The notes under the pieces are model-generated. The model saw only the letters and a list, made by a program, of their open reading frames with translations, searched no databases and was not told the origin of the DNA. A DNA stretch of 64,000 nucleotides from UHGV virus genome UHGV-1430915; one strand, 5' to 3'. This stretch comes from a virus. The translations under genes and the position numbers were made by a program. This document shows, one piece after another, positions 1 to 12,320 of this stretch. Each line of letters starts with the position of its first letter. Within the stretch, counting starts at the first letter, position 1.

Positions 1-195
1 AATCCAAAAAACGCAGTATTGAGTGTTCCCGCTGGCGGCGGCATAATACCGGATCTCAGCTACTTCGTGCAAATTATTGTCATCGTCCAGGCCCACCAGA
101 TTATAAGCCTTGTAAAATCCACGATCACGGCGGCAGTTCTTGACATCAGAAAAAGAAAAGTCCGCATTATCAAAATTAAAGGTAGTAGTTTTCAT
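1..195 (-). CDS. hypothetical protein (N-terminal part; gene runs past window start)
   Basis: Minus-strand frame open from ATG at 195-193 (MKTTTFNFDNADFSFSDVKNCRRDRGFYKAYNL...) to position 1 with no stop; SD-like GAGGATAAAATC directly upstream. Missing from the ORF track because it has no stop in the window. Confidence 0.35.
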   Translation of the reverse strand, partial: MKTTTFNFDNADFSFSDVKNCRRDRGFYKAYNLVGLDDDNNLHEVAEIRYYAAASGNTQYCVFWI

Positions 196-259
196 GATTT
201 TATCCTCTTAGTGTCTTTTGTGCTTTTAGTGTATTTGGTGTCGGACTATATGTCAATAC

Positions 260-457
260 TTATTTTTTATTAAACCAGTGGTTGATCTGGCCTTTTGTCA
301 GGGCGCAACGATTAAGCTGTTGCCGGGTATAGCTCTGACCGCGACGGAATTTATAAAGGCCTTGCCCGTTGTTGATGGTTACGTCCACCTGGCAAACCAT
401 TTGATCGGTGACGGCCTGGTGAGTGTTGCGACGTACTTTAATTCCGTAGGCGTTCAT
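260..457 (-). CDS. hypothetical small protein (65 aa)
   Basis: ORF track; ATG at 457 preceded by the same GAGGATAAAAATC SD context as the gene at 195. Confidence 0.4.
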   Translation of the reverse strand: MNAYGIKVRRNTHQAVTDQMVCQVDVTINNGQGLYKFRRGQSYTRQQLNRCALTKGQINHWFNKK

Positions 458-717
458 GATTTTTATCCTCTCTGTTAATTAGTGTGGTGTTGTTCACCTT
501 GCGAGGGTAAGAATAACAGAACTATCCGAGCTGTCAACCATTAGTTAGAATTATTTTTTGGGCAGAATTCTCCAGCAGCCGCCACTGCCAGGTTAACCAT
601 CATTTTTGTACCTCCTCTTCAGTTGTTGCCTACCCTATAGCATAGCCCTGCCAGGCTGGCCCCGCCAGGTTGCAACGGTTAGCGCATCAGGTTAGAATTT
701 TTTTTTTTTGAAAAGTG

Positions 718-746
718 TTGACAGCGGCCCCGCCAGGTGGCACAAT
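718..746 (+). promoter_or_regulatory. sigma70-like promoter, rightward (TTGACA-17-CACAAT) with upstream T12 UP-element-like tract
   Basis: TTGACA at 718-723, 17-nt GC-rich spacer, CACAAT at 741-746; T-run 698-709 lies where an UP element would sit. Confidence 0.45.
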
Positions 747-781
747 ATACCTATCGAAAGGACGGCAGGCACCGGTGACGG

Positions 782-840
782 GGGAGACAATCACCGGGGA
801 TGGGCGCTGCATAAAATGAGAACGGTTATCATTATCATTT
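782..840 (+). repeat. conserved leader unit copy 1 (GGGAGACAATCACCGGGG ... GAGAACGGTTATCATT)
   Basis: 18-mer GGGAGACAATCACCGGGG at 782-799 is identical to 916-933; a TTATCATT-containing tail follows in both copies. Confidence 0.6.
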
Positions 841-861
841 AAAAATTTATGCAAAAAATCC

Positions 862-892
862 TTGCTTTCTTTGTCCTGTGTGATACTATAAT
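862..892 (+). promoter_or_regulatory. sigma70-like promoter, rightward (TTGCTT-16-TACTATAAT)
   Basis: TTGCTT at 862-867; TACTAT at 884-889 overlapping a perfect TATAAT at 887-892; A-rich upstream. Confidence 0.45.
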
Positions 893-915
893 AACAAGCC
901 GGGGCAACAGGGGCC

Positions 916-972
916 GGGAGACAATCACCGGGGGTGCCCGTTATTCTGCAAACGAGAATGATTATCATTCAA
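916..972 (+). repeat. conserved leader unit copy 2
   Basis: Second copy of GGGAGACAATCACCGGGG (916-933) followed by GAGAATGATTATCATT; sits just downstream of the 862-892 promoter, as copy 1 sits downstream of the 718-746 promoter. Confidence 0.6.
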
Positions 973-1010
973 AATTCTAAATGAGAACTTTTCGCATTTC
1001 ATAAATTTAG

Positions 1011-1022
1011 TTAGCATGCTAA
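1011..1022. promoter_or_regulatory. perfect 12-bp palindrome TTAGCATGCTAA (candidate operator)
   Basis: Exact dyad symmetry read directly in the AT-rich non-coding region. Confidence 0.3.
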
Positions 1023-1090
1023 TTACCTACCGTGACAATTCTATATAAAATAATACCTCCTTAAATATTTCCATATACGAATTTTAAAAA

Positions 1091-1267
1091 TCCATTTCCG
1101 AAAACGAAAAATCGATTTCGTCCCCAAAAATTTCAGGTCGAGCTCCGGAACGATTTCCAGAAAATCTGATTCAGAAAACGAAAAACAGATCGAGTACTAA
1201 GAAATTTATCGAGAAAAATTTTCAGAAAATTCAATCTTTGAAACGAAAAACAGATCGAGTACTGAGA
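1091..1267. repeat. three tandem ~65-bp direct repeats (iteron-like)
   Basis: Core GAAAACGAAAAACAGATCGAGTACT at 1174-1198 and GAAACGAAAAACAGATCGAGTACT at 1240-1263 are near-identical, with similar upstream CAGAAAAT segments; a degenerate copy GAAAACGAAAAATCGATTTCGTCC lies at 1100-1123. Confidence 0.6.
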
Positions 1268-1421
1268 GAGATGTATCAAAACCTACTGAGAATAATGGGC
1301 TTATTGTTATAAAAGGTCAAAGGTAAGCTGGGAAAGTTCTGGTAGAAGGGTGAGGGTATGTGCGGAAAATCTGGAATAGTAACTTAAAGTACGGTGCGAA
1401 CGATAGAATGAGCAGCACATC

Positions 1422-1529
1422 TTATCGCGCCTGTCTTGAAAAATCCATTTTAGTTTTCGATCCATTTTCTGATTTTCTAAGAATTTTAAAATATCCGACT
1501 AGGTAAAATATCAAAAGGAGGAAATCCAT
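1422..1529 (-). CDS. candidate micro-ORF, 35-aa hydrophobic peptide (MDFLLLIFYLVGYFKILRKSENGSKTKMDFSRQAR)
   Basis: ATG at 1529-1527, 8 nt after a perfect SD AAGGAGGA (complement of 1538-1545); hydrophobic N-terminal stretch; below the ORF-track size cutoff. The SD can pair with codons 3-5 (TTCCTCCTT) in a hairpin. Confidence 0.3.
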   Translation of the reverse strand: MDFLLLIFYLVGYFKILRKSENGSKTKMDFSRQAR

Positions 1530-1549
1530 TTTAGAAATCCTCCTTATAC
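1513..1549 (-). terminator. hairpin (8-bp stem AAGGAGGA/UCCUCCUU) downstream of the leftward operon ending at 1575; doubles as an SD-sequestering structure
   Basis: Inverted repeat read on the minus strand with a U-rich 3' flank. Confidence 0.3.
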
Positions 1550-1574
1550 TTGATGTGCCAGGGATTTTCAAGTA

Positions 1575-1904
1575 TCAATTGTCTTTGTTTTTAGGCTTGT
1601 GCATACGTAGAGGTATGGTCTTTATAACATTCCATCTACCCAACCCTTCCCAGTTCCAATTGTGAGCGTGATACCCGGTTATGCATGCACTGCTGGCGTG
1701 ATCATAAGCATAAGAGAACGCTATGCGAACCAGGTGGGGCCAGTCCCTCCACGGCTGTGGACCGTAAGCCTTTCTCCAACACCGACATAAACTAATTGTC
1801 TCAAGAATAGGTAGAATAACAAATCCATATACCGCCACCAAAATGGTCAGAGCAATGATTGTCAGGAATACATACCCTGCAGTTGAAATAATGATCTCTG
1901 TCAT
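1575..1904 (-). CDS. hypothetical membrane protein (109 aa)
   Basis: ORF track; N-terminal hydrophobic stretch IIISTAGYVFLTIIALTILVAVYGFVILPI; ATGA start/stop overlap with the upstream gene. Confidence 0.5.
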   Translation of the reverse strand: MTEIIISTAGYVFLTIIALTILVAVYGFVILPILETISLCRCWRKAYGPQPWRDWPHLVRIAFSYAYDHASSACITGYHAHNWNWEGLGRWNVIKTIPLRMHKPKNKDN

Positions 1905-2104
1905 TTGTCATCCCCTTTCTTACGGATATAGATGTGAGAGCCTGCTTGTACATAAATTTCCCGACCATCTTCTGCAAAGATGTGGAATATACGGTCGCCT
2001 TCGTATTCAATACGGGATATCTTCATAACGGTCTTCCCACCCGGAATGCGGATCTCATCACCAACAGCAATGTTCCATGCAGATTTAAGCTTAAACATCT
2101 GCAC
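1901..2104 (-). CDS. hypothetical protein (67 aa)
   Basis: ORF track; SD AGGAGGG upstream of ATG at 2104. Confidence 0.5.
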   Translation of the reverse strand: MQMFKLKSAWNIAVGDEIRIPGGKTVMKISRIEYEGDRIFHIFAEDGREIYVQAGSHIYIRKKGDDK

Positions 2105-2336
2105 CCTCCTTTGGGAGCTCTAACTCTGGCATAGCCATATACGCCACAACAGGGTTGTAATCAAAGTAGAAATGACCGTTAATTATCCCAGTTTTGTGGG
2201 CATAGTCACCAGATCCCGCAAGAACAATTTCGCAAACTCCGAAATCCACCTTGCCACTCTCATCTGCCATGGCTACAATATACTTTCCTAGAGGCATGTT
2301 TTTAACGCCGTCTACAAATGTCCACCCTTTGTTCAT
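2091..2336 (-). CDS. hypothetical protein (81 aa)
   Basis: ORF track; tightly packed in the leftward operon. Confidence 0.45.
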   Translation of the reverse strand: MNKGWTFVDGVKNMPLGKYIVAMADESGKVDFGVCEIVLAGSGDYAHKTGIINGHFYFDYNPVVAYMAMPELELPKEGADV

Positions 2337-2356
2337 ACTTTATCTCCTGCACTTTC

Positions 2357-2689
2357 TTAAGGTAACCAGTAAACAATTTCGCCTTTCAGTTCCATGTCGT
2401 TACCGACATAGATTTTCCAGCCATCTATTTTAGCCACTGCAGGAGTGAAGTCCGTAGAACCACTAACCTCTTTCCAAGTCCCGTAGTCAGGTTGCCAGAT
2501 ATAGAATCCACCTTCCTTGTCCCATGCTCCATATACCACATCGAGCAGGTTGCCCATTGCAACAATAGTAGGCCGTGGGAATAATACATCTACAGATGCG
2601 CCACAATTTCGGGTAGATTTTAAATTACAATCCCAAAAGATGTCTGCCAGTGTGGCGGCGATAGCTTTACGTCTTTCTAATGTTACCAT
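2357..2689 (-). CDS. hypothetical protein (110 aa)
   Basis: ORF track. Confidence 0.5.
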   Translation of the reverse strand: MVTLERRKAIAATLADIFWDCNLKSTRNCGASVDVLFPRPTIVAMGNLLDVVYGAWDKEGGFYIWQPDYGTWKEVSGSTDFTPAVAKIDGWKIYVGNDMELKGEIVYWLP

Positions 2690-2699
2690 GGTACGATAC

Positions 2700-2891
2700 T
2701 CACTTGTTGTTAAGAAGTTCTAAAACTTTCTGTTTTACTTTATCAATGTCTGTTGATTCAAAAACTGTGCGATATCCCCAACTTTGCCCATAGGAATGAC
2801 TGCAATCCCCGTAACACCATTGCTCAACTTGATAGTATTCAAGGAATGGGTGCTGTCTGACTATGATACCGTCTCGATTAAAAATTACCAT
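2700..2891 (-). CDS. hypothetical protein (63 aa)
   Basis: ORF track; consensus-like promoter immediately upstream (2923-2950). Confidence 0.45.
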   Translation of the reverse strand: MVIFNRDGIIVRQHPFLEYYQVEQWCYGDCSHSYGQSWGYRTVFESTDIDKVKQKVLELLNNK

Positions 2892-2922
2892 AATTTATCC
2901 CTCTCTGCTAGTCTATGTTTGT

Positions 2923-2950
2923 ATTATATACTGCAGTTTTCAGATGTCAA
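2923..2950 (-). promoter_or_regulatory. sigma70-like promoter, leftward (TTGACA-16-TATAAT)
   Basis: Complement of 2945-2950 is TTGACA and complement of 2923-2928 is TATAAT. Confidence 0.5.
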
Positions 2951-2954
2951 CCTT

Positions 2955-3149
2955 TTACAGGTTACTCCAGTATAATCGGCATTTGCATTTTGGGCAATGA
3001 GGTTCTTTTATGTAATAACCATCAGTCTTTGGAACACTTTTTGGTGCAGTTTTAAGATTGTACCGAGTAAAGCACCGGAAGCAGGTTACCTCTCCTACCT
3101 GTTGATCGTTTATCCACTCACCAGAGTAAAGCTCTTTCTTGTTTCTCAT
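2955..3149 (-). CDS. hypothetical zinc-ribbon protein (64 aa from MRNKKELYSGEW...)
   Basis: CxxC ... CPKCKC cysteine pairs; start moved to ATG at 3149 (SD GGGAGA upstream) so it does not overlap the gene ending at 3152. Confidence 0.45.
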   Translation of the reverse strand: MRNKKELYSGEWINDQQVGEVTCFRCFTRYNLKTAPKSVPKTDGYYIKEPHCPKCKCRLYWSNL

Positions 3150-3151
3150 AA

Positions 3152-3346
3152 TTATCTCCCTAGTCCTCTGCAATCTTCTACCAGAATCTCCAGCCAGAAA
3201 GCACACGGGAACACTTTGAGGATTGAATCTTTACTCGGCTCGGAAGTTCTTTTTCCATAGGGCAGGTAGAAATACCCTCCTGCAGATTCAAACATGGCTC
3301 CTTCTGTTGTATCTATCACAGCTAGAATTAGGATTTTAGTCTCCAT
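3152..3346 (-). CDS. hypothetical protein (64 aa)
   Basis: ORF track. Confidence 0.4.
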   Translation of the reverse strand: METKILILAVIDTTEGAMFESAGGYFYLPYGKRTSEPSKDSILKVFPCAFWLEILVEDCRGLGR

Positions 3347-3400
3347 AGTGCTCCCCTGTATTAATCGTTGTGGTGACTATACCACCTTAAAATATAGCTG

Positions 3401-3871
3401 TCAACACCCTTTGTACTCCACCACGATAATATCTATATCAAAAGTGGCAAGGTTAATAATGTCCTCTACATGTTCCCACTTCAAACCGCCTATGCCGCAC
3501 CCGATCTTAGGGATGTAGAATGGTAAAATCGACCCCTCAAATACTTCATTGACTCGCTCAAATCCTTTCAGTATTGAGAAATATTCAGCATTAGGTCCTG
3601 GATAGAACTGAGTATACAGATTTATTCCGTAGACAATACCTCTCGGAGATAAGTGCTCCCAACGGGAGAACGCGCCCAGTTTACTTAGGCAACCGTGCAT
3701 AGTCATTTTATCAGCTTCCAATGCTTGAGGGAATTCACGAGCAATCTGCTTTGCTACACCCTTCCCCATTGTGTGGAAGCAGTTACAACCGTGGATCAGG
3801 TGACCAGCACCGCTCTTAAAAAGGGAGATTAAATCTCCCTCTACAGTATCAATAATCACGATATTCCAGCT
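3401..3871 (-). CDS. macro-domain protein, Poa1p-like (ADP-ribose-processing)
   Basis: Motif LIHGCNCFHTMGKGVAKQIAREFP matches the Poa1p-type macro signature (IHxCNCxxxxGxGIAxQ...P) and is preceded by an IIDTVEGDLIS strand. Start likely the in-frame GTG near 3871 rather than the track ATG at 3940, which would overlap the upstream gene. Confidence 0.5.
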   Translation of the reverse strand, partial: SWNIVIIDTVEGDLISLFKSGAGHLIHGCNCFHTMGKGVAKQIAREFPQALEADKMTMHGCLSKLGAFSRWEHLSPRGIVYGINLYTQFYPGPNAEYFSILKGFERVNEVFEGSILPFYIPKIGCGIGGLKWEHVEDIINLATFDIDIIVVEYKGC

Positions 3872-6339: not shown

Positions 6340-6749
6340 TATTTGTCTCCTTGTTCTTCGTTGGTGTTTGCTGTGTGTGCAAACCCTGCTTGAATTAATT
6401 TGTCCTGCACTTGAGCCAACAGGCCCATTGCAAAACTTGTCGTCCCAGAAAGGGCCATTAGCATATCTCGTTGCTGAGCTACCCAACCTAAGGCATAATC
6501 CAAACGACGATATTTTTCTTCTTCGCGCAGAGCCTGGAATAACTGTTCAGCCTCTGGTTGTTGTGTGAGCTCCTGAAGTCTCCCCATGAAAGAAGAAAGT
6601 ACCAGCAGAAGAGACACTTGATCTTTGCTTAACCCTAAGAAAAATTCTTGAGGTTGTTCTTGCTCGTTCATCGCAACCGACGTTTGATCGTTCATTTGTT
6701 CCATTGTGGAATCTCCGATTTTATTTGAACAACATAAAGGAGACACCAT
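6339..6749 (-). CDS. hypothetical protein (136 aa)
   Basis: ORF track; translationally coupled to the downstream gene. Confidence 0.5.
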   Translation of the reverse strand: MVSPLCCSNKIGDSTMEQMNDQTSVAMNEQEQPQEFFLGLSKDQVSLLLVLSSFMGRLQELTQQPEAEQLFQALREEEKYRRLDYALGWVAQQRDMLMALSGTTSFAMGLLAQVQDKLIQAGFAHTANTNEEQGDK

Positions 6750-9542: not shown

Positions 9543-12320
9543 TTAGTGACAATCGCCCCAGTTACGACCGCACAAGTATTCACCTGTGATCTGGAACGGA
9601 ACGCCCATCATTTTAGAAGCCTGCCAGAAGCAATGCACCACCATTTCGCCCACAGGGCTCCAGATAAGTTCAAGCTTTCCGTCATCGTTCAAGATAGGAT
9701 CGTATACCGTATTTCCGTCCTTGTCAACCACTTCGTTTCCGTCCTCATCTTTGTGTGCCTTTTTGTACTTATGACCGTCGAACACATGAAGTTTAGCCTC
9801 TTGTTGGGCTTTAAATGTTTCCAGCTCTTCAATTGTGTCGAAGGTGTATACAGTTTTATACTTAGGGGTGTCAGGCACTTGAAGCTGATATTCGTCATGG
9901 TAATAAATAATACGACGAACACCTTCATCATACCATCCACGCTTCACCATTTGGTGGTGCATGAGGATTCCGACCAAGTCGCACAACGATGCACCGCCAT
10001 TTTGCTGATATGCATTAAGCAAAGAGTGTTTAGAGCGGGTCCAAATGGCATGCCCGTCAAAAGAGTAGATAAATTTCTTACCTGTTGCTTCCCAGAATTT
10101 CTCCAGATCCTCTTTGCGCCCCTTAAGACCTGGGTTGGCATCCCAGAGAGCATCAATTACTCTCTGCCCCAGTTCTGGAGAGATATCCAGCATATCTGCA
10201 ACTTTATCTTTTTGTGCCCCATACATAACCCCATACGTGATAGGTTTACCATCGTTACGAGACACCTCTCTACCTGCTACTTTTGTATATGCCTCAGCAT
10301 TGTTTTGGTGCGCGTCCCCGTTACTTACAACATCATAATACAGGCCGTTGTCAAACTCAAATGCACCCCAGGCCCCGATGAGCTGCTCTAAGTTGGACCC
10401 GTCAATACCGATCTCAAAGTATCCAGGAGGAACACCCCACAGACTACGCATCTCTTTACCCATAACCACTTTAGGAGATGGTTTAGGCATGTTTGCACAA
10501 ATACTATGTTTCTGTCTGGAAGTGTTTGTTAATCCAGAACTTTTAGCAGGAAGCTTGTGGTCAATCTTCAAACGTGGATGATTAAGAAGACCAGTATCAA
10601 CCTTATCTTCCTTGATTGGATCAAGGACCGATCTGCGGTTTCGCAATGATAACCACAAAACGATATCTTTAGCCATCTCTCCGTTCAATTTTTCAAGATT
10701 CGGGCACAGGTGTCCAAACGTATCTTTCAGTTGCGGAGAAGTAATAAGCGCTCTGGCTTTTCTACGTATCTTCCCAAACACTTCCTTTTTAATCCTTTCT
10801 GAGTTAGGGAAGCTTCGGAACTTATGCACAGTTGTCTGGAACTTGGCATCAGTTTTGTTCCAGAAGTTGATAATTAGATCACAATACTCTGACTCCAAAA
10901 GCTCGTCCATATATGCATATACTCGTGCATCAACATCTGCATCAGGTAAAGCTTTCTTCTTGCTGTCTTTAGTTACATCTTTAGTTCTCCACATTGTTGG
11001 GAGCCAACCAGCACTGATCAGGTATCGCTTGATGTCGTCCTGATTGCTGATTTTCATAGGTATCTTGCAGTCAGGCATTCGCTTCTGCTGTAGGTCACTT
11101 ATCGCCTGATCCATCAGCTCTTTAGGTAAAGGGTGTGGTGTAGAAGTTCCTTTGATATACCCCCTCAAGAAATCAGCCATCTTATCGGGGTCTTTACAGC
11201 CCATCTCTTCACACCATTTTATCCCCATCTTACTTACATCCCCTGTGGAGGTAAATGCTCGCTTAGGAGGAGCTTTGAACTCTAAAGCACTCATGTCCAC
11301 AGGGTAGCCAAGCTTGTCTTTTAACCATTTCCAACCATTATTGGAGATTGTCCCATCCTGGTTAAACGGCTTTTCAGGGAACTTAGGCCGCTGAGACATT
11401 GATAACTCTTTTAAAGGAAGTTGTGGTTCAACACGATCAGCGATCTCTTTCATCCACGCATCGCAACGGTCACGTAAAGCAATAGCCCCATCTATGTCGA
11501 AATACACCCCCTGTCGAGCCTGCAGCTCCATCAGGAAGTGCTGTAACATGCCTCGGCGTAATGCGTTCTTCCAGGTGATCTTCTTGAAGCCTTTCGGCTT
11601 CTCTTTGGCAGGATCGTACATAAAGTTCTGCATGTCAGATTTGCCGTAGAATACACCTTTTGATTCCGCTACCAACTCCTTCCAGAGCAACTCCTGAATG
11701 ATAACGTCCTCGAACACACGATCCACATACTTCCACAGCGGAAGCTCACGCCAGTCATCGATTTGAACTTTCTGGTTACCAAGGGCATAGCCCCATGCCA
11801 TAAGACCATGAGGTCCAACAGGCTGCATTTTCTTAGTAACTGGATTGAATACTGCGTCCGGACAACCTTTTGGCAAAGGGCGGTCAGGCCACAAGATTCG
11901 ACTCATCGCTAACGTATCAAACAGATTAACCTGGTGGTCGTTGATAGTTCCCATGCATTTAGGATCACGGAACATATCAAAATGAATACCGGATAATCTC
12001 TCCATCAGCATAAAGTCGTAGCTGTAGCAGTTATGACAGTTCAAAGCTGTAGGTGACCAGTCTGAGTTACCTGTAAGCCAACCCTCCAACTCTGAAAAAT
12101 CTGCTATGCGAACATCAAAATCTGTATAAAGGGTCTTCTTTGCCAGAATGAAGTTCTTAGCTTTCTCCACATCCTCTTCAGAGTAGTGTGTGTGGTCATT
12201 TAGAGGAAGGAACAGCATAAAACGGTTCTTATTCAACTCTTTAAACAAACCGCAGTGATAATAAAGATCTGGATCTTCCAGCAGGCCAGAGGCCTCAAAA
12301 TCGAAAGACCACATACTCAT
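9543..12320 (-). CDS. DNA polymerase, family A (T7 gp5-like, with 3'-5' exonuclease)
   Basis: Exo I motif FDFEASGL at residues 6-13 (the position it has in T7 gp5); motif A-like DGSNLEQL, motif B K..YG..YG, motif C YYHDE. Confidence 0.85.
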   Translation of the reverse strand: MSMWSFDFEASGLLEDPDLYYHCGLFKELNKNRFMLFLPLNDHTHYSEEDVEKAKNFILAKKTLYTDFDVRIADFSELEGWLTGNSDWSPTALNCHNCYSYDFMLMERLSGIHFDMFRDPKCMGTINDHQVNLFDTLAMSRILWPDRPLPKGCPDAVFNPVTKKMQPVGPHGLMAWGYALGNQKVQIDDWRELPLWKYVDRVFEDVIIQELLWKELVAESKGVFYGKSDMQNFMYDPAKEKPKGFKKITWKNALRRGMLQHFLMELQARQGVYFDIDGAIALRDRCDAWMKEIADRVEPQLPLKELSMSQRPKFPEKPFNQDGTISNNGWKWLKDKLGYPVDMSALEFKAPPKRAFTSTGDVSKMGIKWCEEMGCKDPDKMADFLRGYIKGTSTPHPLPKELMDQAISDLQQKRMPDCKIPMKISNQDDIKRYLISAGWLPTMWRTKDVTKDSKKKALPDADVDARVYAYMDELLESEYCDLIINFWNKTDAKFQTTVHKFRSFPNSERIKKEVFGKIRRKARALITSPQLKDTFGHLCPNLEKLNGEMAKDIVLWLSLRNRRSVLDPIKEDKVDTGLLNHPRLKIDHKLPAKSSGLTNTSRQKHSICANMPKPSPKVVMGKEMRSLWGVPPGYFEIGIDGSNLEQLIGAWGAFEFDNGLYYDVVSNGDAHQNNAEAYTKVAGREVSRNDGKPITYGVMYGAQKDKVADMLDISPELGQRVIDALWDANPGLKGRKEDLEKFWEATGKKFIYSFDGHAIWTRSKHSLLNAYQQNGGASLCDLVGILMHHQMVKRGWYDEGVRRIIYYHDEYQLQVPDTPKYKTVYTFDTIEELETFKAQQEAKLHVFDGHKYKKAHKDEDGNEVVDKDGNTVYDPILNDDGKLELIWSPVGEMVVHCFWQASKMMGVPFQITGEYLCGRNWGDCH

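Follow-up and report, generated by a model that had tools for sequence, protein, structure and literature searches.

A conserved array of three composite repeats in the non-coding hub of Vequintavirus genomes and its possible part in DNA replication

The stretch of DNA considered here, 64,000 nucleotides of the virus genome UHGV-1430915 (hereafter the window), carries near its start a hub of about 1 kb (~480–1575) that is poor in open reading frames (ORFs) and interrupts a long minus-strand cluster of small genes. Within this hub lies the subject of the present work, an array of three direct repeats. An earlier note, made from the sequence, had described it as three tandem units of about 65 bp, two with a near-identical core and the third degenerate, and had suggested an origin of replication, a multi-site binding array, or a signal for injection or packaging. 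The region 600–1600 matches 122 phage records with 80–99% identity, nearly all of them from Escherichia phages of the genus Vequintavirus; the closest is S127 BCL3 (99%). The genus comprises the rV5-like myoviruses, which have genomes of approximately 137 kb. Annotation of ORFs inside the hub gap is inconsistent between records, and a literature search returned no description of the element, nor of the start of replication or the entry of DNA in these phages.

Repeat search, shuffling and alignment all bear out the arrangement first described. A three-way alignment divides the array into head-to-tail units, each starting with AAAAT (Table 1), and the repeat search returned two pairs, 1148–1202 with 1213–1267 (55 nt, 78%, spacing 65) and 1087–1133 with 1161–1207 (47 nt, 72%, spacing 74). 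The 25-nt core GAAAACGAAAAACAGATCGAGTACT, exact at 1174–1198 and present with two mismatches at 1239–1263, had no match in 100 shuffles of the 64-kb window; the third copy, at 1098–1123 in unit 1, is degenerate. A BLAST comparison of the sequence with itself gives an off-register match (E = 6e-9) in the window and in three relatives, and Tandem Repeats Finder (TRF) with default scoring missed the array in the window. Each unit is composite, consisting of an a-site, an A-rich spacer and a b-site that lies ~20 bp (two helical turns) downstream of the a-site. The a-site is of the AAATCC/AATACGAT type (AAATCCATTT type in Vequintavirus) and its motif is reiterated in the right block of the hub; the b-site is (A/C)GATCGAG(T/A)AC, with GATC inside. 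The b-site of unit 1 has decayed to TCGATTTCG, and this unit is homologous to the first of the three units in other genera. In unit 2, positions 1169–1198 (ATTCAGAAAACGAAAAACAGATCGAGTAC) are identical in all 12 aligned Vequintavirus genomes. The 3′ third of unit 3 falls in a variable segment, and its core differs slightly among relatives (GAAATGAAAAGTAGATCGAG). The array does not have the CRISPR-like plan of identical repeats with unique spacers, its inter-core segments being homologous between units and conserved among phages.

Retention of the array within the genus is close to complete: it was found in 116 of 117 related Vequintavirus records (at least 80% of a 241-bp query), including genomes of 128–129 kb. 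Conservation was followed in an alignment of 12 Vequintavirus genomes as the mean pairwise identity per 25-column window. Identity is 0.86–1.00 over 668–1262 and 1438–1537 (apart from two windows at 0.76 and 0.81), as against 0.62–0.76 at 460–641, the comparison stretch beside the left-flank gene. The array block itself has 0.86–0.98, while neighbouring small ORFs have been gained and lost. Relatives vary in a short patch at 1134–1150, inside unit 1, and in the segment 1263–1437 that follows the third core, where identity is 0.70–0.80 as against 0.92–0.99 in the adjoining blocks. Phage FV3 groups with V18 in the former segment but with the window in the latter, and such discordant haplotypes point to recombination inside the hub. 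No variation in array copy number was seen in the genomes inspected, and in the complete 137-kb genome of the phage Gotham the core occurs once as an array locus. The array is absent from 5,426 E. coli genomes. As for the proteins at the flanks, one of 109 aa matched just two loci in IMG/VR and, in the phage collection, Vequintavirus records alone, and one of 65 aa matched unrelated jumbo phages. A loose three-core pattern scan of IMG/VR gave mostly chance matches, with extended cores in one of 120 loci.

The main new result is that the three-core layout recurs across genera. In KPP-1, a Klebsiella phage of the genus Mydovirus, a homologous hub lies 8.1–9.4 kb from the terminal repeat and three units can be read from its sequence; a search with this hub matched 353 phage records. 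TRF finds homologous arrays in KPP-1, EspYZU15 and BME3 (period 67, scores 165–185). The leftmost block of the hub, made up of a GC hairpin and a palindrome, is common to the Vequintavirinae and the phi92-like Stephanstirmvirinae, across several γ-proteobacterial host genera. Measured from core start to core start, first to second and then second to third, the spacings are 67 + 74 bp in KPP-1, 67 + 76 bp and 67 + 75 bp in the Seunavirus members GAP31 and EspYZU15, 63 + 78 bp in CR9 and DU_PP_I (Certrevirus), 74 + 65 bp in the window, and 75 + 67 bp in BME3 and alia (Justusliebigvirus). The unit count is always three; the middle unit may be displaced by as much as 14 bp, yet first and third stay 139–143 bp apart.

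The arrays of Mydovirus, Seunavirus and Certrevirus stand at the syntenic place. The cross-genus consensus of the core, AAAATACG(A/T)T(T/C)TnGAAAn(T/C)GAAAAnn(C)GATCGAG(A/T)(A/C)CC, again contains an a-site and a GATC-bearing b-site ~20 bp apart. In Justusliebigvirus, which belongs to a second subfamily, the layout is kept with a unit sequence unrelated to the others. That two lineages of E. coli phages carry different unit sequences suggests that the putative reader of the array is lineage-specific and encoded by the phage rather than by the host. It should be added that in the alia record a repeat region is annotated at the homologous stretch, and that the hubs of Mydovirus and Seunavirus encode a 63-aa plus-strand protein of the DUF7170 family behind the first inward promoter (KPP-1 10690–10881; GAP31 stretch 553–744). 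No homologue of this protein is found in Vequintavirus, and the ORF at the equivalent place in BME3 is unrelated; DUF7170, considered as the cognate reader on grounds of adjacency, was rejected because it is absent from Vequintavirus.

The array could in principle act as DNA, as RNA or as coding sequence. Rfam gave no match at E ≤ 1 for positions 1–3000 of the window, which span the hub, and ARAGORN found no tRNA there or in the hub region of KPP-1; one Mydovirus record annotates tRNAs beneath the homologous stretch. The array folds no better than its shuffles (z = +0.5 and +0.4 on the two strands), and an alignment of 16 units has a consensus fold of −0.16 kcal/mol, with no covariation. The variable segment has weak consensus structure only (−14 kcal/mol over 193 columns), and the fold of 750–1000, at z = −2.15, is not decisive. 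No reading frame can be conserved across the array, since most of the unit spacings (65, 67, 74 and 76 bp) are indivisible by three and they vary among genera. The minus-strand ORFs of the hub are not the same in different genomes; the one that starts at the ATG at 1531, where a Shine–Dalgarno sequence is present, ranges from 32 to 84 aa among relatives and has frame-shifted, variable tails. The hypothetical ORFs annotated over the array, namely KPP_12311 (KPP-1 11234–11578), GAP31_043A (GAP31 stretch 1135–1416, recorded as having a ‘poor ribosome-binding site’) and bas49_0102/0103 (6418–6671), are very likely annotation artefacts. Since neither an RNA fold nor a coding signal is seen, the array most probably works as double-stranded DNA that is read by a putative protein.

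The remainder of the hub is organized around a set of plus-strand promoter-like sites and palindromes (Table 1); all of the hub promoters are consensus matches only. The site P1 is nearly invariant in the 12 genomes and reads rightward, against the surrounding genes. The candidate P2 has homologues, also on the plus strand (TTGCAA-17-TATATT), in KPP-1, GAP31 and CR9. KPP-1 and GAP31 each have three promoter-like sites in tandem on the plus strand ahead of the array, the nearest of which ends ~5–15 bp before unit 1, and in CR9 the promoter scan flags two sites upstream of the array. The palindromic operators at 816–832 and 952–968 are the two best matches to the Fur consensus in the window, and their cross-lineage consensus is ATGAGAATnATTCTCAT. 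The block that runs from the 3′ part of the GC-rich repeat at 916–936 through the next operator is the part conserved in the 353 phage records. With up to three mismatches, the palindrome occurs in Gotham only in the hub and in both copies of the terminal repeat, besides two probable chance matches. Its positions in the terminal repeats are 11–27 and 127–160 in Gotham and 54–70 and 249–265 in BME3; KPP-1 has several copies just inside the terminal repeat (2847–3701). A 93-aa minus-strand ORF annotated in several records (687–968; ORF 198 of rV5) overlaps both the GGGAGACAATCACCGGGG repeats and the promoters; it is unlikely to be a genuine gene.

Directly upstream of the array lies the least stable DNA of the window, which upholds the claim of AT-rich flanks: the minimum over 100 bp is at 996–1095 (−1.114 against a mean of −1.343 kcal/mol per bp) and that over 300 bp is at 955–1254, overlapping the array. 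The plus strand is rich in purines from 1101 to 1400 (fraction 0.627; window mean 0.468). The 12-bp palindrome to which attention had also been drawn, TTAGCATGCTAA at 1011–1022, is indeed present. However, it is broken (TTAGCACGCTAA) in four of the 12 Vequintavirus genomes and was not seen on reading the hubs of KPP-1, GAP31, CR9 and BME3, so the conserved design does not include it. The right block of the hub has identities of 0.97 (1438–1487) and 1.00 (1513–1537) in the 12 genomes, exceeding those of neighbouring coding DNA, and contains a weak hairpin (1515–1522 with 1538–1545). The motif ATCCATTT, which corresponds to the a-site in the 5′ half of the array units, occurs seven times in the 64 kb, and four of these occurrences are at 1090, 1443, 1460 and 1524. 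Counterparts of the right block, as GAAAACCATTTC (period 12) and CAAATATC repeats, are found in KPP-1, GAP31, EspYZU15, CR9 and BME3.

Table 1. Features of the hub, in window coordinates (a point in the strand column marks features listed with no strand).
Feature	Position	Strand	Remarks
Promoter-like site P1	718–746	+	TTGACA-17-CACAAT with TG, T-run before; 10/12 consensus matches
GC-rich repeat GGGAGACAATCACCGGGG, copy 1	782–802	+	Downstream of P1
Palindromic operator ATGAGAACGGTTATCAT, Fur-box-like	816–832	.	16/19 against the 19-nt Fur consensus; best match in the window
Candidate promoter P2	862–889	+	TTGCTT-16-TACTAT with TGn; read by eye, under scan threshold; conserved
GC-rich repeat GGGAGACAATCACCGGGG, copy 2	916–936	+	Downstream of P2
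Palindromic operator ACGAGAATGATTATCAT, Fur-box-like	952–968	.	15/19 against the Fur consensus
Third, weaker operator copy ATGAGAACTTTTCGCAT	981–997	.	Counterpart AAATAAGAATGCTTCTCATTC in KPP-1 and GAP31
AT-rich, easily melted stretch	996–1095	.	Directly upstream of the array; includes palindrome TTAGCATGCTAA
Repeat unit 1	1087–1160	+	74 bp, degenerate; starts AAAATCC, carries ATCCATTT and GAAAACGAAAAA
Repeat unit 2	1161–1225	+	65 bp; core GAAAACGAAAAACAGATCGAGTACT at 1174–1198, GATC at 1188; best conserved unit
Repeat unit 3	1226–~1290	+	Core TGAAACGAAAAACAGATCGAGTACT at 1239–1263, GATC at 1253
Fast-evolving spacer	1263–1437	.	Identity 0.70–0.80, approximately three haplotypes, purine-rich plus strand
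Right block, short direct repeats	1438–1545	+	ATCCATTT at 1443, 1460 and 1524; AAATATC at 1489 and 1506

The place of the hub in the whole genome is best seen in Gotham, for which direct terminal repeats of 459 bp have been reported and are present at both ends of the record. The array cores of Gotham start at 11,450, 11,524 and 11,589, that is, 11.4 kb from the physical left end (8.3% of the 137-kb genome). The BME3 record starts and ends with an identical 342 bp, so that its array lies 12.0 kb in from the left end (8.2% of 147 kb); in KPP-1 (143 kb) the array is 8.9 kb from the terminal repeat, which was mapped by read coverage. Between the left end and the hub of Gotham are ~30 small genes, all transcribed toward the end and with predicted σ70 promoters. 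Past the hub come further small genes and then those for polymerase, primase-helicase, methylases, PIF1 helicase and rII. In rV5 the hub repeats are at 117,155–117,356. The authors of the rV5 genome described an ORF-free box at 104,013–106,618; this lies ~11 kb from the hub and is by position the sub-terminal region, not the hub considered here. Both arms of Gotham are transcribed endward (minus strand 1.5–37.5 kb, plus strand 98.5–135.6 kb), with small σ70-driven genes at both extremities, and its cumulative GC-skew minimum (98.4 kb) and least stable DNA (96.7 kb) mark the inner divergence point.

Several records deserve comment. At 599/600 the window is without ~130 bp that are found in most relatives and encode a small ORF on the minus strand (ORF181 of FV3); the deletion at the equivalent position in Murica is bigger. 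The entry CP057073.1 (137,565 bp, cattle faeces), filed as a non-mobilizable E. coli plasmid, has the array at 97% identity and, judged by its size, is a mislabelled Vequintavirus genome, co-assembled with the isolate or carried by it. A host or plasmid origin was considered for the array and rejected, there being no match in any E. coli genome and this mislabelled phage genome being the sole plasmid match. Finally, 16–21 ‘Campylobacter phage’ records (MG0656xx, one of them marked UNVERIFIED) match the hub, with array identities of 92–95% among the matches listed; their assignment to a Campylobacter host looks doubtful.

What, then, is the array for? The suggestion that it is a (putative) multi-site binding array is well supported by its retention in 116 of 117 records, its single occurrence per genome, the lack of RNA structure, and a geometry that is shared by five genera, one of them in a second subfamily. 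We consider that the array probably acts as DNA, being the place where a sequence-specific protein complex is assembled and a putative DNA-binding machine would dock. As to what would be done there, the best reading, which we hold tentatively, is that the array forms the core of a transcription-activated replication origin; from the sequence we infer that a protein binds here, that the hub is transcribed in vivo and that it takes any part in replication. Host RNA polymerase would start at the inward-facing σ70-type promoters of the hub, gated by the Fur-box-like palindromic operators, and would run across the least stable DNA of the region, then over the array and on into the purine-rich segment. 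The AT-rich stretch might be opened jointly by this transcription and by a phage protein, specific to the lineage, that occupies the three composite sites; there a T7-like replisome (a gp4-like primase-helicase and a family-A polymerase) would be loaded, in a manner comparable to the T7 primary origin, T4 oriF/oriG and the transcription-activated lambda ori.

The reasons for preferring an origin are that the array is a unique, universally retained multi-site element, that it adjoins easily melted DNA, that it is fed by promoters, and that it belongs to a phage with a T7-type replisome and no recognizable initiator. Profile matches identify a primase-helicase (DnaB_C/AAA_25) and PIF1, and there is a weak match to DNA_pol_A, whose 31.8 bits fall short of the cut-off (34.3); the annotation of the records agrees with these matches, and neither source shows a recognized initiator. 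Of the features by which transcription-primed origins are known, promoters directed into an AT-rich region and a T7/T4-type replisome without a dedicated initiator are both present. Of those that define iteron origins, at least three direct repeats in the same orientation are found in the window and in six other phages, and an adjacent AT-rich unwinding region is found in the window. A repeat spacing of about two helical turns is not; a distance of this order (~20 bp) occurs only within units, from a-site to b-site.

Several observations weigh against an origin. No initiator-like gene was found beside the array: 27 neighbouring or left-arm proteins belong to families of unknown function or have no match in Pfam and PHROGs, and a novel initiator may be among them. 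The hub contains no exact DnaA box, its one-mismatch matches occurring at about the window-wide rate, and no consensus site for integration host factor (IHF) at up to one mismatch; nor is GATC enriched in the window hub. Cumulative GC skew, both locally and genome-wide, tracks the direction of transcription with no turn at the hub, and the authors of the rV5 study likewise concluded that skew follows transcription. The spacing of 63–78 bp and the bipartite cores of ~40 bp differ from classical iterons, which are 17–22 bp long at ~22-bp spacing. On the scale of the Gotham genome the hub ranks no higher than fourth for instability over 300 bp, and there are three other AT-rich, ORF-poor regions, one at 96.7 kb and the two sub-terminal ones. 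At Gotham 480–600 there is also a cluster of TTTACACA/GTTTACA motifs, spaced by ~11 bp, with one exact DnaA box (TTTTACACA). This cluster lies in the 1.5-kb ORF-free left sub-terminal region, just inside the terminal repeat, and offers another candidate for an origin or for a site at which host factors act. The literature search found no experimental data on the replication of these phages. The proposal of an origin in the earlier note is thus plausible in respect of the unstable DNA, the promoters and the T7-like replisome, but lacks DnaA and IHF sites, a skew inflection, a recognizable Rep-like neighbour and the iteron spacing. It is the lack of a recognizable initiator gene nearby, of DnaA/IHF sites and of a skew signal, together with the non-iteron spacing and the other AT-rich, ORF-poor regions, that keep our assessment of an origin tentative.

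A promoter directed into the array would suit a regulatory or roadblock role equally well. It has to be considered whether a phage regulator binds the three composite sites below an inward promoter and acts as a roadblock, silencer or insulator. Such an array would split the long leftward early unit in two and time the hub transcripts, and would have no direct role in replication. We regard this as rather doubtful, although it is the strongest of the alternatives. The hub does interrupt a gene cluster of single direction, and the promoter-like sites of the KPP-1 and GAP31 hubs mostly oppose the surrounding genes, those upstream of the array without exception; the proximity of one of these sites to unit 1 in both phages fits the same picture. 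Palindromic operators stand just upstream of the array and recur in the terminal repeats, and this sharing suggests that one regulator controls several non-coding promoters. Uniqueness and conservation would suit any cis-regulatory site. On the other hand, three sites over 140 bp with a fixed outer distance, and further motifs over 450 bp, go far beyond known phage operators. In Vequintavirus no protein-coding gene lies downstream of the array, and there is no linked regulator gene, DUF7170 being missing from that genus.

A further alternative, which we think unlikely, is suggested by analogy with the injection-stop region of T5, namely that the hub is a DNA-entry or early-region boundary element and that the left ~8% of the genome would enter first. 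The element, perhaps with the operators of the terminal repeats, would then halt transfer until early proteins had been made, or its inward promoters would pull in the rest of the genome. The hub lies 6–8% from the left end (8.3% in Gotham, 8.2% in BME3, 8.9 kb of 143 kb in KPP-1), and between it and the end is the set of ~30 small, endward-directed genes with predicted σ70 promoters. Its architecture resembles Repeat Region 3 of T5, a 1.2-kb untranslated block at 9.2–10.4 kb whose conservation exceeds that of the ORFs; direct repeats of 66 bp occur in it along with palindromes and inverted repeats, and partner repeats lie nearer the end. Operator copies are also present at the genome ends. 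Vequintaviruses, like T5-like phages, are highly sensitive to daunorubicin, which blocks the T5-like phage Bas33 after first-step transfer; however, this sensitivity is found in T1-like phages too. Paired DnaA boxes, the conserved hallmark of the T5 model, are absent from the hub, and the hub is outside any long terminal repeat, the repeats being of just 459 bp (Gotham) and 342 bp (BME3). Position and architecture thus speak for an injection signal, as first put forward, and the absence of these two features speaks against it. The proteins of the left 11 kb are of at most 207 aa and the 20 tested match PHROGs of unknown function only (no direct comparison with T5 A1/A2 was made). Since they are small and belong to no annotated family, an A1/A2-like function is not recognizable among them. 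Moreover, the genes on the two sides of the hub are alike, being small and having σ70 promoters, and the literature search gave no report of two-step DNA transfer for these phages. A more specific version, to which we attach slightly less credence still, would make the hub and the terminal-repeat operators one system that both marks off and governs the ~8% of the genome that would enter first; it would be a T5-like mechanism of staged genome delivery or of early-region control, built from parts unrelated to those of T5, be common to Vequintavirinae and Stephanstirmvirinae, and be read by host Fur or by a phage protein.

It is improbable, more so than any of the foregoing, that the product of the locus is a repeat-containing non-coding RNA of ~450–650 nt, whose A-rich units would act as a sponge for an RNA-binding protein or as a mimic of a ToxI-type antitoxin. 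Promoter-like sites are directed into the array, every motif family has a single orientation, and the related phage phiTE carries a tandem-repeat antitoxin mimic (pseudo-ToxI), all of which are points in favour of an RNA. Against this, the units have no conserved structure, neither strand gives a fold signal, Rfam has no match at E ≤ 1 over 1–3000, and the copy number is fixed in the genomes inspected. Two specific forms were rejected: for an Hfq sponge, (ARN)≥4 motifs are not enriched in six hubs, and for an antitoxin mimic, similarity to pseudo-ToxI amounts to chance 8–10-mers only, the phiTE locus moreover lying in the late region, flanked by a tRNA and by a gene for a structural protein of the virion. 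The weakest proposal, a packaging (pac/cos-type) site for terminase, is barely credible: three repeats beside bendable A/T tracts recall the R sites of lambda cosB, and GATC-containing repeats recall P1 pac, but the virion ends are short terminal repeats 11–12 kb away in Gotham and BME3 and 8.9 kb away in KPP-1, the array is not repeated near the genome ends, and its position in Gotham, 11.4 kb inside the physical left end with the 459-bp repeats at the ends of the record, means that it is not a terminus or packaging site and contradicts the earlier suggestion of one.

Whatever its function, the array is of some practical importance. The rV5-like and phi92-like phages are often isolated and have therapeutic and biocontrol use. 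Being unique, non-coding, deeply conserved and fixed in the geometry of its three sites, the element provides a precise target for functional work; for phage engineering, deleting or splitting it is likely to be harmful; and several of the ORFs that public records place across it probably do not represent genes. Should staged entry of DNA be what lies behind the link to the terminal repeats, a peculiarity of T5 would extend to two further phage subfamilies.

The element resembles several known origin and boundary elements and matches the defining set of none. Pseudo-ToxI of phiTE (Certrevirus) is likewise repeated in tandem within non-coding DNA, and its phage belongs to the same subfamily, but it has structured repeats of 36 nt that expand under selection, in contrast to unstructured units of 63–78 bp fixed at three. 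ToxI-type antitoxins in general have tandem repeats of ~34–45 nt with a conserved pseudoknot, and the array does not. With the injection-stop region of T5 the hub shares an untranslated block of ~1 kb, ~8% from the left end and more conserved than the neighbouring ORFs; direct repeats of ~66 bp, palindromes and families of short repeats, with related motifs nearer the end; and small genes driven by host promoters between block and end. It differs in having no paired DnaA boxes, no long terminal repeat, no recognizable A1/A2 and no sequence similarity. Iteron origins (lambda ori, P1 oriR, P4 ori/crr and those of theta plasmids) are alike in their same-orientation direct repeats beside an AT-rich region and in forming a locus that is unique in the genome, with extra partial copies nearby; GATC within the repeats recalls P1 oriR in particular. 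Here, however, no recognizable Rep- or O-like gene contains or adjoins the repeats, DnaA boxes are missing, and ~40-bp bipartite cores 63–78 bp apart take the place of 17–22-bp sites at ~22 bp. The hub differs from the T7 primary origin and T4 oriF/oriG in that its promoters are of the host σ70 type and apparently operator-controlled; nothing in those origins corresponds to the three conserved composite repeats, and priming in the hub is a proposal only. They nevertheless share with it tandem promoters directed into an AT-rich, unwindable stretch, a T7-type replisome with no recognized initiator gene, and a site in the putatively early-entering part of a genome with terminal repeats.

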